Of a DNA stretch of 64,000 nucleotides, positions 9,801 through 46,532 are shown in pieces. Origin of the DNA: Eledone cirrhosa (lineage: Eukaryota); assembly GCA_964016885.1 (NCBI GenBank), contig OZ024740.1, positions 193,378,001 through 193,442,000 on the forward strand, written 5' to 3'. The stretch's first letter is position 1. Each line of letters begins with the position of its first letter. The notes under the pieces are model-generated. The model searched no databases, was not told where the DNA came from, and saw only the letters and a list, made by a program, of their open reading frames with translations. The position numbers were made by a program, and so were the translations under genes.

Positions 9801-9818
9801 TATATATATATATATATA

Positions 9819-12800
9819 GGTTGAAAAAAATGAAAACGAAATTTCATTTCTCACTCTTAGTTTGGCACTTACTTAAATGTAAGTATGTATGTATACGTAC
9901 ATACATATATGTATACAGACGTACAGTAGCATGCATATATATATATATATATATATATATATATATATATATATATATATATATATATATATATATATAT
10001 ATATACATACAGGTACACATATATATATGCACGCATCAGTTTAGTGGACGCTTATTATAACGCCGCTTTGTTTGTTTGTCAACAAACTGAACAGCTGAAT
10101 TTATGCCATACGGTGTTAAGGCAACCACGTCACCTTTTTGTTCAACAATGACACAGGAACGATGTACTAGTTTCAAGCTTGTTAGCTATCATCAGCACCG
10201 TTTACCCATCTGCCAGATAGTTGAACGTTCGAAAGTATATACTTTCCTTATTAAAAGTAACGGCTGAGCAGCCTTATTTGCATATTGACTGAGTTAAATC
10301 GGTCAGGCATACCGAAAACGATAAGTTGAAAAAAATGAAAACGAAATTTCATTTCTCACTCTTAGTATGGCACTTACTTAAATGTAAGTATGTATGTGTA
10401 CGTACATACATATATCTATGCAGACGTATAGTAGCATGCATATATATATATATATATATATATATATATATATATATATATATATATATATATATATATA
10501 TATATATATATATATATATATATATATATATATATATATATACATACAGGTACACATAACATATATGCACGCATCAGTTTAGCGGACGTTTATTATAACG
10601 CCGCTTTGTTCGTTTGTCAACAAACTGAACAGCCTGAATTTATGCCATACGGTGTTAAGGCAACCACGTCACCTTTTTGTTCAACACTGACACAGGAACG
10701 ATGTACTAGTTTCAAGCTTGTTAGCTATCATCAGCACCGTTTACCCATCTGCCAGATAGTTGAACGTTCGAAAGTATATACTTTCCTTATGAAAATTAAC
10801 GGCTGAGCAGCCTAATTTGCATATTGAGTGAGTTAAATCGGTCAGGCATACCGAAAACGATAAGTTGAAAAAAATGAAAACGAAATTTCATTTCTCACTC
10901 TTAGTATGGCACTTACTTAAAAGTAAGTATGTATGTATACGTACATACACATATGTATACAGACGTACAGTAGCATGCATATATATATATATATATATAT
11001 ATATATATATATATATATATATATATATATATATATATATAAAAACAAATAGCGAAACGAAATTAAATTTCGTTTCGTTTGTAACTCACTTTTGTATGAC
11101 TGACGCTTAAACAATTAAGTTAAAAATGTACATCCGCATTTGTATACTGAAATATTAGTATGCATATGAATACACACACGTATACATATGTAGATGTACC
11201 GAGTTTTTCACTGGTCACTTTACTGTGAGTGTCCAGCTATTCTGTATGTAAACACACAGACAAACCGGTTTTTAGAGTCATACTGGTTTTTGAGGAAACA
11301 CCTTTCCTCTATTCTCCAGAAAGCCAGACAAGGAATATTGAACTAGTTTCGATGTTGTTACATCTCATCAGCAATATTTACCTATCTTCCGGCCTTTCTA
11401 GAGAATCGTAAAAGCACATATCGTTATATGCTTTTTCTATGAAAATTAGTAGTGGGCAGACTAATTTGCATAGAGCGTGAGCACGTACCGTTTCAACGGA
11501 GACGATAAAAACAAATAACGAAACGAAATTAAATTTCGTTTCGTTTGTAACTCACTTTTGTATGACTGACGCTTAAACAATTAAGTTAAAAATGTACATC
11601 CGTATATGTATACTGAAATATTAGTATGCATATGAATACACACACGTATACGTATGTAGATATACCGAGTTTTTCACTGATCACTGTACTGTGAGTGTCC
11701 AGCTATTCTGTATGTAAACACACAGACAAACCGGTTTTTAGAGTCATACTGGTTTTTGAGGAAACACCTTTCCTCTATTCTGCAGAAAGCCAGACAAGGA
11801 ATATTGAACTAGTTTCGATGTTGTTACATCTCATCAGCAATATTTACCTATCTTCCGGCCTTTCTAGAGAATCGTAAAAGCACTTATCGTTATATGCTTT
11901 TTCTATGAAAATTAGTAGTGGGCAGATTAATTTGCATAGAGCGTGAGTACGTACCGGTTCAACGGAGACGATAAAAACAAATAACGAAACGAAATTAAAT
12001 TTCGTTTCGTTTGTAACTCACTTTTGTATGACTGACGCTTAAACAATTAAGTTAAAAATGTACATCCGCATATGTATACTGAAATATTAGTATGCATATG
12101 AACACACACACGTATACATATGTAGATGTACCGAGTTTTTTACTGGTCACTTTACTGTGAGTGTCCAGCTATTCTGTATGTAAACACACAGACAAACAGG
12201 TTTTTAGAGTCATACTGGTTTTTGAGGAAACACCTTTCCTCTATTCTCCAGAAAGCCAGTCAAACCGGTTTGTCTGTGTGTTTACATACAGAATAGCTGG
12301 ACACTCACAGTTAAGTGACCAGTGAAAAACTCGGTACATCTACATATGTATACGTGTGTGTATTCATATGCATACTAATATTTCAGTATACATATGCGGA
12401 TGTACATTGTTAACTTAATTATATATATATATATATATATATATACATACAGGTACACATACATATATGCACGCATCAGTTTAGCGGACGCTTATTATAA
12501 CGCCGCTTTGTTCGTTTGTCAACAAACTGAACAGCTGAATTTATGCCATACGGTGTTAAGGCAACCACGTCACCTTTTTGTTCAACACTGACACAGGAAC
12601 GATGTACTAGTTTCAAGCTTGTTAGCTATCATCAGCACCGTTTACCCATCTGCCAGATAGTTGAACGTTCGAAAGTATATACTTTCCTTAAGAAAATTAT
12701 CGGCTGAGCAGCCTAATTTGCATATTGAGTGAGTTAAATCGGTCAGGCATACCGAAAACGATAAGTTGAAAAAAATGAAAACGAAATTTCATTTCTCACT

Positions 12801-13725
12801 CTTAGTATGGCACTTACTTAAATGTAAGTATGTATGTATACGTACATACACATATGTATACAGACGTACAGTAGCATGCATATATATATATATATATATA
12901 TATATATATATATATATACATACAGGTACACATACATATATGCACGCATCAGTTTAGCGGACGCTTATTATAACGCCGCTTTGTTCGTTTGTCAACAAAC
13001 TGAACAGCCTGAATTTATGCCATACGGTGTTAAGGCAACCACGTCACCTTTTTGTTCAACACTGACACAGGAACGATGTACTAGTTTCAAGCTAGTTAGC
13101 TATCATCAGCACCATTTACCCATCTGCCAGATAGTTGAACGTTCGAAAGTATATACTTTCCTTATGAAAATTAACGGCTGAGCAGCCTAATTTGCATATT
13201 GAGTGAGTTAAATCGGTCAGGCATACCGAAAGCGATAAGTTGAAAAAAATGAAAACGAAATTTCATTTCTCACTCTTAGTATGGCACTTACTTAAATGTA
13301 AGTATGTATGTATACGTACATACATATATGTATACAGACGTAGAGTAGCATGCATATATATATATATATATATATATATATATATATATATATATATATA
13401 TATTTATATATATACATACAGGTACACATAAATTCAGGCTGTTAAGTTTGTTGACAAACGAACAAAGCGGCGTTATAATAAGCGTCCGCTAAACTGATGC
13501 GTGCATATATGTATGTGTACCTGTATGTATATATATATATATATATATATATATATATATGCATGCAACTGTATGTCTGTATACATATATGTATGTACGT
13601 ATACATACATACTTACATTTAAGTAAGTGCCATACTAAGAGTGGGAAATGAAATTTCGTTTTCATTTTTTCCAACTTATCGTTTTCGGTATGCCTGACCG
13701 ATTTAACTCACTCAATATGCAAATT
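9819..13725 (-). mobile_element. HHR tandem repeat family B (retrozyme-like), ~4.4 units of 474-540 bp with internal (TA)n, terminal inverted copy 13430-13725
   Basis: Units start at ~9820, 10325, 10864, 12765, 13239; HHR on minus at 10160-10200, ~10699-10739, ~12600-12640, ~13074-13114: CGGTG-CTGATGA-T-AGCT-aaca-AGCT-T-GAAA-CTAG-TA-CATCG. Confidence 0.85.
11041..12415 (-). mobile_element. HHR tandem repeat family A' (2.6 x 466 bp plus inverted partial 12262-12415), nested in the (TA)n of a family B unit
   Basis: Units start at 11041, 11507, 11973; HHR on minus at 11334-11378 and 11800-11844; family B resumes after (TA)n at ~12445. Confidence 0.88.
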
Positions 13726-13774
13726 ATATATATTTAAAGGTTATATATATACATATATATATATATATATATAT

Positions 13775-44254: not shown

Positions 44255-44470
44255 ATAATGATAATGATGGCGTTTTTGTTAATGATGGTGATGATGATGA
44301 TGATGATGATTATGACGACGACGAGGATGATGATGATGATGAATATGCTGATAATGATGTTGATGTTGGTGATGATAATCCTGATGATTATAATGAAAAT
44401 GACGATGATGATGATGATGGTGATATTAATGCTGATGAGAATGATGATGATGAGAATTTGTTGATAATGA
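44255..44470. repeat. Imperfect (GAT)n microsatellite
   Basis: Direct reading. Confidence 0.9.
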
Positions 44471-44840
44471 CAATTTTTATAGAAACACCTGTTAGTTGTT
44501 GATTTAATTAATTAAATCACACGCTAATTAAAAATTGGCTATTTCCTGAAGCACCGCTTTTCAGTATCTGTTACGTTCAGTAAAAATATTTTAGCGGTCT
44601 TTCAATGATACAGAGTTGCATCATGGCAGACATGACCAATTAATGACATATATCTAGTTATACTTGCATTTATATTTTTTGTTCTCTAGTAACATAATGC
44701 AAACTATGTACTATGTATATATAGATATTTTACACATATGTAAATATGAATATTTCTATTTATATGCTTTCGTAAATATATACACATACAGAAACACACA
44801 CACACACGCATATATATATATATATATATATATATATATA

Positions 44841-45592
44841 GGCCGGGTAAAATTCCCGAGATCCATGGACGAGTTCTCTCCAGCGGGCTCTGTCCCTCAT
44901 TATCGCTGCCATGTCCTGCGTTCCAACAGACCAGGGTCTGTCCTTAGGGCATCAACATACGTTAACCTTCGTCTTCCTCTTCCAGTGTGTCCAAGTAGAG
45001 GCTCCCACATGAGCACTGAGTGCAATGTCAACTCTGGATGTCGGTGAGGATGACCAGCTAACCTCAGTCTCCTCTGTGTCACTTTTGAGCTGACGTTTGG
45101 GAGGCTCCCATACAGCTCTGAGTTGTTCATCCTCAGTGTATACTGATTAATGTACAGAGAACTCCTCAGCATTCTCTTGTAGCACCCATTCACCATCTGA
45201 GTGAGATTCTTGGTGATTTGGATGACAAATACAGTGAAGGAGGCAGAGGATTTGATGCGGGAGGTTGAGAATGTGTCGATGAGTGTGGGGCTGAGAATGA
45301 ATGAGACTAAAACAAAATATCTCGTAGAGAATGTTGAGAAGTCAGAGGGGATCACTAATGTGGGTGGGAAGCTGCTAGAATTGGTTGAGGGCTTCCTGTA
45401 TTTGGGAGCAAAGATTGGGAATACGGAAGATGATGTGGTTGAGAGGAAGAGCAAGGCCTGGGCGGCGTGCCACAGCTTGAGATCGGTGTGGAAGTCGGAC
45501 CTTCGTAAAGACCTGAAAATCCGCCTCTTCATTGCTGTAGTGGAGTTTGTGCTGCTGTACGGGCCTGAGACTTGAACACTGACCAAGAAAAA
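44841..45592 (-). mobile_element. 5'-truncated, 5'-inverted RTE-like LINE fragment
   Basis: Plus 45215-45590 encodes VGLRMNETKTK..FLYLG..LLYGPET*TLTK; minus 45214-44841 encodes the continuation KNLTQMVNGCYKRMLR..RRLRLAGH..GRGRRRLTY. Confidence 0.85.
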
Positions 45593-46532
45593 CACACACA
45601 CACACACACACACATATATATATATATATATATATATATATATAAGTATGTATTCTCACCGTATAGGTAAATATTATCAGCCGTACTAAGAGTGAGAAAT
45701 GAAATTTCATTTTTTCTCTCTCTCTCTCTCTCTCTCTCTCTCTCTCTCTCTCTATATATATATATATATATATATATATATATATATATATATATATATA
45801 GAAAGAATTGAATGTATGTAAATATATATATATATATATATATGTGTGTGTGTGTGTGTGTGTGTGAGTGTGTGTGTAAATATATATGTGTGTGTATGTG
45901 TGTGTGTGTAAATATATATATATATATATTACGACGAAACCAGTATTAAATTAGACTATTACTCAACAGAGTACTCGATGTTCGGAATAGTACAGTATGA
46001 CTATATTAGAAAGAATCTGGGCTCGACAGCTGAGCTCTTGCAGTTTGATAGCTACATCCAGACTGTTATCAAACTGACTTACAGTAAACTAGCCATTTCC
46101 TCTAGGTTGTGGCTAGGTTAATTGATGCCTCGGTAAAATAAGGCTTGTTAATAGAAGGGTATTTATCATCTTGATTTATTAGGCTGTGTATATATGTGTA
46201 TGCGTAACGTTAGCCATTTCTGTGGTTCGAGAAAATTTAACTAGTTTAATTGCAGACCTAAAACCAACCTTGCTACCACGAACATTGCTAACCCTCCCGG
46301 ACCAAAGAACTGTACGGTTATGGCATTCAAAATTGTATATGCGTGTCAACAAAAGCACCTACTTTGTAGTTTTCTGAAAAGATCACAGATCAACTGGTCG
46401 GTATTATGATTGCTGGTGTGTGTATGGAGTGTGCCTGTGGTCGATCAGTCAGAAGTGTTCCATATTTTTTGTACGTATCCGCACTTTGAGTACATTCACC
46501 CAGACCTCCATTTTGCCTTTCATTATTTCAAT

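Follow-up and report, generated by a model that had tools for sequence, protein, structure and literature searches.

A 64,000-nucleotide stretch of the Eledone cirrhosa genome (contig OZ024740.1, positions 193,378,001 to 193,442,000), hereafter the window, carries tandem repeats of the families A, A', B and C. Judged by their sequence, A, B and C are tandem repeats with a type I hammerhead, i.e. retrozymes lacking long terminal repeats (non-LTR retrozymes). Their insertions have two fixed outer ends: a site T, and a second site P located ~55-72 nt further in across families A, B and C. In most two-armed insertions, T and P are paired on inverted arms. This arrangement probably arises because a Penelope-like element (PLE) endonuclease/reverse transcriptase (RT) makes a nick in either target strand and starts two cDNAs, each from a different internal site of the same template. 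The retrozyme features of the window are as follows.

9816..13727, minus strand (RNA sense of the main arm): family B retrozyme insertion, left arm beginning at T (9816)
~13427-13727, opposite to the main arm: inverted short right arm of B, with an atypical start 49 nt outside T
11039..12421, both strands: family A' two-armed insertion, nested in the internal (TA)n of B
11039-12263 and 12262-12421: T arm and inverted P arm of A', respectively (P end ~12420)
25786..32751, minus strand: family A array, 15 units of 465 bp, beginning at T
25786..25860, minus strand: family A tail, with T (25786-25788), a predicted 12-13 bp hairpin and P (~25855-25861)
26064..26135, minus strand: putative type I hammerhead of the first A unit (RF02275, 38.6 bits; gathering score 52)
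13985..14831, plus strand: two-unit family C retrozyme whose right end lies 14 nt inside T
45643..45715, both strands: miniature P + T two-armed insertion of family C type

Units measure 465-468 bp in A and A', ~474 bp in B, which includes an internal (TA)n, and ~435 bp in C. A pattern search recovered the hammerhead core motif in 15/15 A units, 2 A' units, 4 B units and one of the two C units, on the minus strand of the window for A, A' and B and on the plus strand for C. Rfam HH9 matches reached at most 41.5 bits, under the gathering score of 52. The putative ribozymes have the cleavage triplet GUU in A and GUA in B and C. Their cut site was inferred from the motif only; it falls at 26086/26087 in the first A unit, whose helix III is palindromic, and at 298|299 in the family A numbering used below (cDNA strand, position 1 = window 26254). 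Array A contains no open reading frame (ORF) of at least 100 amino acids, and an RT + GIY-YIG ORF is encoded by neither A, B nor C; such ORFs sit in elements neighbouring them. The setting is a 3.0-Gb animal genome with abundant (TA)n and PLE fragments, in which one internal family A motif has 8,123 exact copies (reversed-pattern control, 0). Folded as circles, the retrozyme monomers are predicted to have 64-71% of their bases paired. Many more families with a hammerhead core were seen in the flanks of the examined loci, and a further B/C-related retrozyme family with an identical T motif was found at L050 and L163. A fourth tandem family (496-bp unit, 2.5 copies) lies between (TA)n runs at window 18451-19698; pattern search found no hammerhead core in it.

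The first-pass annotation of this DNA had proposed that independent insertions end at one homologous site beside a conserved hairpin, where reverse transcription would start. Arrays indeed start from (TA)n in B (9816), A' (11039) and A (25786); the junction falls on the ATA of GATA, just ahead of a predicted hairpin, and, as had been claimed, this site T is far from the ribozyme cut (~300 nt downstream of the inferred cut in the RNA sense in A, 317 nt in B). The common end site holds for A, A' and B, but not for the C copy, whose end at 14831 lies ~14 nt inside T. This end is fused without (TA)n to a truncated PLE arm, and since that arm is without its own last ~270 nt, the joint most likely results from a later deletion. 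The small fragment at ~45670-45715, also thought to end there, does have a T arm, but is actually part of a miniature two-armed insertion (45643-45715) made of an 11-nt P arm, a 24-nt filler and a ~40-nt T arm adjoining (CT)n.

An exact-match count over the genome gave 1,824 (TA)n-T junctions of family A against 0 for the reversed-pattern control, well above what chance would produce. The other side, predicted to show scattered breakpoints, usually ends at P, and scatter is confined to the inner junctions. A fixed start is supported, but a single fixed end site was rejected, as two were found. In the window itself, P is present at 12420 in the inverted arm of A'. Exact P junctions of family A number 588 on the reverse strand alone (reversed control, 0); the forward-strand count of 1,602 is inflated by overlapping starts. 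The contigs of one run, which may be the assembly's own sample, contain (TA)n loose ends at T. We then typed arm starts in two sets of family A loci. In the best-hit set (39 regions), 65/67 arms start at positions 463-1 (T) or 66-73 (P), ranges that together make up 11 of the 465 unit positions, and one of the two exceptional arms is a P start with an internal deletion. The unbiased set comprises all 25 sites in the first 100 entries of the internal-motif search, with no selection on ends. All 40 printed starts in it are at one of the two sites, with 22 at T and 18 at P; this leaves uncounted two arms that the fetch edge truncated. The flanks, read further, yielded four micro-arms that start at T or P, plus a short one starting elsewhere. 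Families B and C carry homologous T and P sites, ~55-62 nt apart.

The two sites are used in pairs. Among the 26 insertions of the unbiased set (one region held two), 18 are inverted T+P and none is T+T or P+P, the remainder being 5 with T only and 3 with P without T. Under independent ends, the chance of 18 mixed pairs and no same-same pair is 0.5^18 = 4e-6. The best-hit set (38 insertions, one duplicate removed) contains 26 T+P and no same-same pair, next to 3 insertions with an atypical short second arm and 9 single ones, which brings family A to 44 T+P versus 0 same-same. Coordinate lists, holding 88 T and 62 P junctions, gave 27 convergent T-P pairs within 15 kb and no P-P pair; their sole T-T pair resolves into two insertions. 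Pairing in B and C was read by eye: the 21 B regions include 7 clean T+P, no same-same and one complex case, the rest being single or cut off apart from those starting in (TA)n, and the 29 C regions include 13 T+P, 1 T+T and 15 single or unclear cases. Paired insertions of A, B and C carry the tail at one end only, apart from the T+T case in C.

The inner ends behave differently. In the 126 inner ends typed in both A sets and the window, there is no pile-up at the ribozyme cut (4/126 within 5 nt versus 3.0 expected, p = 0.99), and the densest 11-nt window holds 7 ends versus 8.4 in simulations. Accumulation of inner ends at the cut or at palindromes was accordingly rejected as a candidate. In the two sets, 55/62 and 35/40 arms (90/102 together) are long enough to have run past the cut, so that a cleaved linear monomer is not the usual template. 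Together with the uniform inner ends, this agrees with the multi-unit or circular template suggested by the first-pass annotation.

The two arms of an insertion also share a haplotype. They agree in 120/121 comparisons at common polymorphic sites (26 loci) and in 757/768 (31 loci), together 877/889, versus 34% and 39% discordance when arm pairs were shuffled. Units differ within some insertions; at three such loci (L067, L039 and L290), the variants line up in the same register when counted from each arm's start. Like the two loci whose arms match out of register, these need a multi-unit template or later conversion. A young, near-identical haplotype is found at 7 loci with up to 17 units per arm, and one of its loci carries 20 identical units over both arms, with 0/9,185 positions differing. 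These identical units fit a rolling circle and equally a homogeneous source; as a proof of circularity they failed, the variant not being private to one locus but present at all 7, in no more than 17 units per arm. Some cases need a multimer, and the odds that the template is a circle are about even. A 31-unit arm at L283-L284 shows recurring variant blocks, which suggests tandem duplication after insertion.

Target sites and junction forms point to ends made at the time of insertion. The young haplotype alone shows four T junction forms and four P forms at its 7 loci; because these forms vary within one near-identical haplotype, the ends are remade at each insertion. L303 lies in non-repeat, non-(TA)n DNA and has a 16-17 bp target duplication, with the target overlapping the element by 4-5 nt at T and P alike. 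Seven further loci have 12-14 bp duplications. Duplications were readable at these 8 loci of 21 printed flank pairs, the others being pure (TA)n or mispaired rows, and the target-element overlap at junctions is 1-5 nt. The proposal that the RT start pairs with nicked (TA)n is thus upheld as regards short pairing of a target end with the UAU of the RNA, but (TA)n is preferred rather than required, as L303 illustrates.

Sequence and predicted structure around T and P delimit a putative cis element of ~130 nt. In RNA order, it comprises a short hairpin with UUUAAG (P), GUGAG, a long hairpin, a U-rich linker, UUAUCGU (T), a small hairpin, CUCAC and AUGCAAAU. The short motifs UUAUCGU and UUUAAG are common to A and B/C. 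From family to family the P hairpin shows no change; the T hairpin shifts its pairing register in the alignment between A and B/C. Compared with shuffled sequences, the T/P segment folds better in A' (z = -3.1), B (z = -3.4) and C (z = -2.9); the family A copy tested, which carries a stem mutation, folds no better than shuffles (z = -0.5). No covariation support was obtained for the predicted hairpins, judged by alignment without a pair count and with only three or four independent families available. Microhomology alone does not choose the site, as the A unit holds 14 ATA sites of which just one serves as T. An octamer, ATGCAAAT, is common to all families ~45 nt 3' of T in the RNA sense (window 26195-26215 and the equivalent place in A', B and C units). 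It is reminiscent of the small nuclear RNA-type promoter of newt satellite 2; a literature search on an octamer promoter gave no supporting paper.

The PLEs of the same genome served as context and candidate partners. Two of those in the window are the following.

14832..18040, both strands: Neptune-like PLE, two-armed insertion, right arm stopping at the tail-less site
32749..35306, plus strand: Hydra-type PLE, 5'-truncated and frameshifted, with DKT and CxCX5C motifs in translation

The first element is used as an internal control and not as a demonstrated partner. Its family is abundant, has 777-aa open frames elsewhere with a CX4CxxC linker and GIY-YIG, and appears Neptune-like by that linker. 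Among 30 printed ends of this family, whose tail is 36 nt long, 17 are tailed, 11 are tail-less, one runs into a tandem copy and one is interrupted. Its 3/3 inverted pairs combine a tailed and a tail-less end, as do 11/11 in a related PLE family with a 40-nt tail, i.e. 14/14 mixed pairs together. The tail-less end of the Neptune-like family is often followed by expanded (CT)n, as if the first bases had been copied repeatedly, and a degenerate minimal-hammerhead-like motif lies in its 3' repeat at 17890-17935. The Hydra clade is described as having a DKT motif and a CxCX5C linker before a C-terminal endonuclease (PMC8557442), and on these translated motifs the element at 32749-35306 is a Hydra-type PLE. 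Its family has ends ~80 nt apart and one mixed pair. A version in which a Hydra-type element ends at (TA)n with T+T pairs was ruled out, as that (TA)n is internal. The inner end of array A joins the Hydra-type fragment through a 3-nt overlap; the fragment is oriented like a second arm of the array, and its own 3' end is missing here. At L186, a family A T arm is likewise joined to a tail-less Neptune-like PLE arm; such chimeric joints may be later rearrangements. A 9-nt match between a tail-less PLE end and the C linker, seen by eye, was not significant, and no solved structure matched the PLE protein. L143 and L144 are tiny two-armed insertions of the Hydra-type 3' end only, tail-less on one side and tailed on the other, resembling miniature inverted-repeat transposable elements.

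Other elements lie nearby in the window. A second Hydra-type RT fragment, degraded and on the minus strand (35307-36368), adjoins the point where the first breaks off at its 3' end and has a hammerhead-like core near 36170. A third PLE-like element (4989-7876 and 4364-4894), with an RT fragment and a GIY-YIG-like frame, has an inverted partial copy. A long near-perfect inverted repeat at 9030-9810, flanked by (TA)n runs and with arms of ~390 bp around an ACCGGT palindrome near 9455, is probably another two-armed insertion. Fragments of long interspersed nuclear elements (LINEs) are abundant.

Priming at two sites could proceed as follows. The target would be nicked on both strands with a stagger of 12-17 bp in AT-rich DNA. 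One target 3' end would pair with UUUAU at T. The other would do so with a UAAUU/UUUA motif at P, which in the RNA lies 55-72 nt upstream, and each cDNA would then extend for a variable length over an uncleaved multimer or circle before the two are joined tail to tail by microhomology. The enzyme would probably be a dimer.

Several observations weigh against this two-site priming. Single arms or atypical second arms leave 8/26 unbiased and 12/38 best-hit insertions outside the T+P class, the C locus L107 pairs T with T, four B loci have their start within the (TA)n of the unit itself, and the right arm of the B insertion in the window ends (13727) at neither T nor P. Arms match out of register at L034 (P0 = T9) and L298 (P0 = T2). 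Gene conversion from one inverted arm to the other could contribute to their haplotype agreement, and long arrays visibly underwent later tandem expansion. As regards the enzyme, A, B and C share no homology with the 3' ends of the three PLE families compared, one Hydra-type locus (L131/L133) is a possible T+T, and the A chimeras point to two PLE clades (Hydra-type in the window and at L031, Neptune-like at L186). The GUU triplet of family A is presumably a weak one. The tails of A, B and C, at 55-72 nt, are longer than the published 30-40 bp, and bulk starts of a PLE protein in vitro (PAc, see below) show no strand difference (PMC11167929).

Much of the pattern could also be produced by trimming, in which both arms begin at T and the endonuclease cuts one back to P during resolution, P being a processing site. 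Trimming has been proposed for the PLE tail (PMC8557442) and accounts directly for its one-sidedness; in-register arms fit as well, and L107 could be an untrimmed case. However, the P junction overlaps the target duplication by several bases at L303, as priming predicts, P junctions take three main forms over 7 nt (23, 23 and 21 cases), and two RT starts bracket the tail in vitro (PMC11167929), so that we consider trimming unlikely. More improbable still is that ends are inherited from transcripts running into flanking (TA)n, whose (UA)n tail would pair with the nick in a LINE-like manner, with no internal signal. In its favour, nearly all junctions are to (TA)n, and B copies can start in their own (TA)n run; yet at L303 both T and P abut non-repeat DNA, a single identical haplotype comes with several junction forms, and locus variants common to T0 and P0 require P priming inside a T-bearing unit. 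Nor would inherited ends predict the absence of T+T pairs.

A single cDNA from T that turns and copies itself would also yield an inverted arm. Such self-priming was proposed for inverted Penelope junctions (PMC3846280), and a few inner joints here fall on ACCGGT palindromes. Arm lengths largely refute it: in 7/25 full two-armed best-hit loci the P arm exceeds the T arm in length, and it can reach 31 units versus 1. Arms moreover contain sequence missing from the partner arm, and inner ends show no peak, which leaves fold-back very little probability. It is equally improbable that a non-PLE retroelement mobilises the repeats by LINE-type twin priming, the likeness to PLE tails being convergent. 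The LINE fragments of the window and the lack of terminal homology to the three PLE families compared are in favour of such an origin. L1 twin priming gives non-overlapping arms and a poly(A) end, whereas the two internal sites, overlapping arms and one-sided tails seen here match the PLEs of this genome.

Priming at two internal sites has to be set against what is known of related systems. Like A, B and C, metazoan non-LTR retrozymes lack coding capacity and repeat in tandem a unit of a few hundred bp that bears a single type I hammerhead (Cervera and de la Pena 2020, PMC7229834; PMC7761336; Li et al. 2026, bioRxiv 10.64898/2026.07.22.740005), and both have low GC, dispersed arrays, co-occurring PLEs and larger target duplications. 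In the accessible parts of these papers, termini and priming are treated as unknown, the PLE link is argued from co-occurrence and pseudo-LTR phylogeny, and, according to the review, no conserved motif points to a partner (PMC7761336). The present account differs from them in that ends are mapped and two fixed sites, away from the cut, are paired in inverted arms. With the PLE tail and inverted pseudo-LTR (PMC8557442, PMC3846280), A, B and C share an inverted 5'-truncated second copy, a tail at one end, microsatellite targets and target duplications, but they are a protein-less ribozyme repeat. Those papers call the tail optional or often one-sided; in the present account, the pairing of ends and the sharing of a template were counted.

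The closest experimental counterpart is the Poseidon element PAc of Anolis, whose reverse transcription in vitro begins at two internal sites, one on either side of the tail (Frangieh et al. 2024, PMC11167929). Initiation is internal, at a stem-loop, targets are AT-rich, ribozyme cleavage is not needed, and the protein nicks and extends both strands. The PAc starts lie in an AC-rich stem-loop at the ORF start, described as non-homologous to the cut DNA, whereas the starts in A, B and C are U-rich and share 1-5 nt with the target, almost every insertion using one of each (PMC11167929 for PAc). For PLEs, a start at two internal sites and a tail on one side only are thus already published, and retrozymes have been proposed to be PLE-mobilised. 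A literature search, which left subscription papers largely uncovered and supplements that could hold such data, found no report for retrozymes of mapped termini, T+P counts, internal initiation or a one-sided tail. What appears to be new is that ribozyme repeats use two starts as a pair on one shared template.

The priming mode and the enzyme of animal ribozyme repeats are stated to be open in the accessible parts of the retrozyme papers, and the termini bear on both. At base level, these termini would be a direct footprint of the PLE machinery on retrozymes. With the near-strict T+P pairing, the shared haplotype and the target duplication, the older descriptive "tail at one end" becomes a testable rule for the use of the two target strands by a PLE enzyme. 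A more specific version, to which we give somewhat less than an even chance, is that an asymmetric PLE RT dimer grips one retrozyme RNA, circular or multimeric, at the two-site element and makes two copies of it simultaneously, with one subunit starting at T on one target strand and its partner at P on the other. If true, this would unite the PLE tail, inverted repeats and the birth of ribozyme satellites in one reaction, a mode of integration unlike LINE priming.

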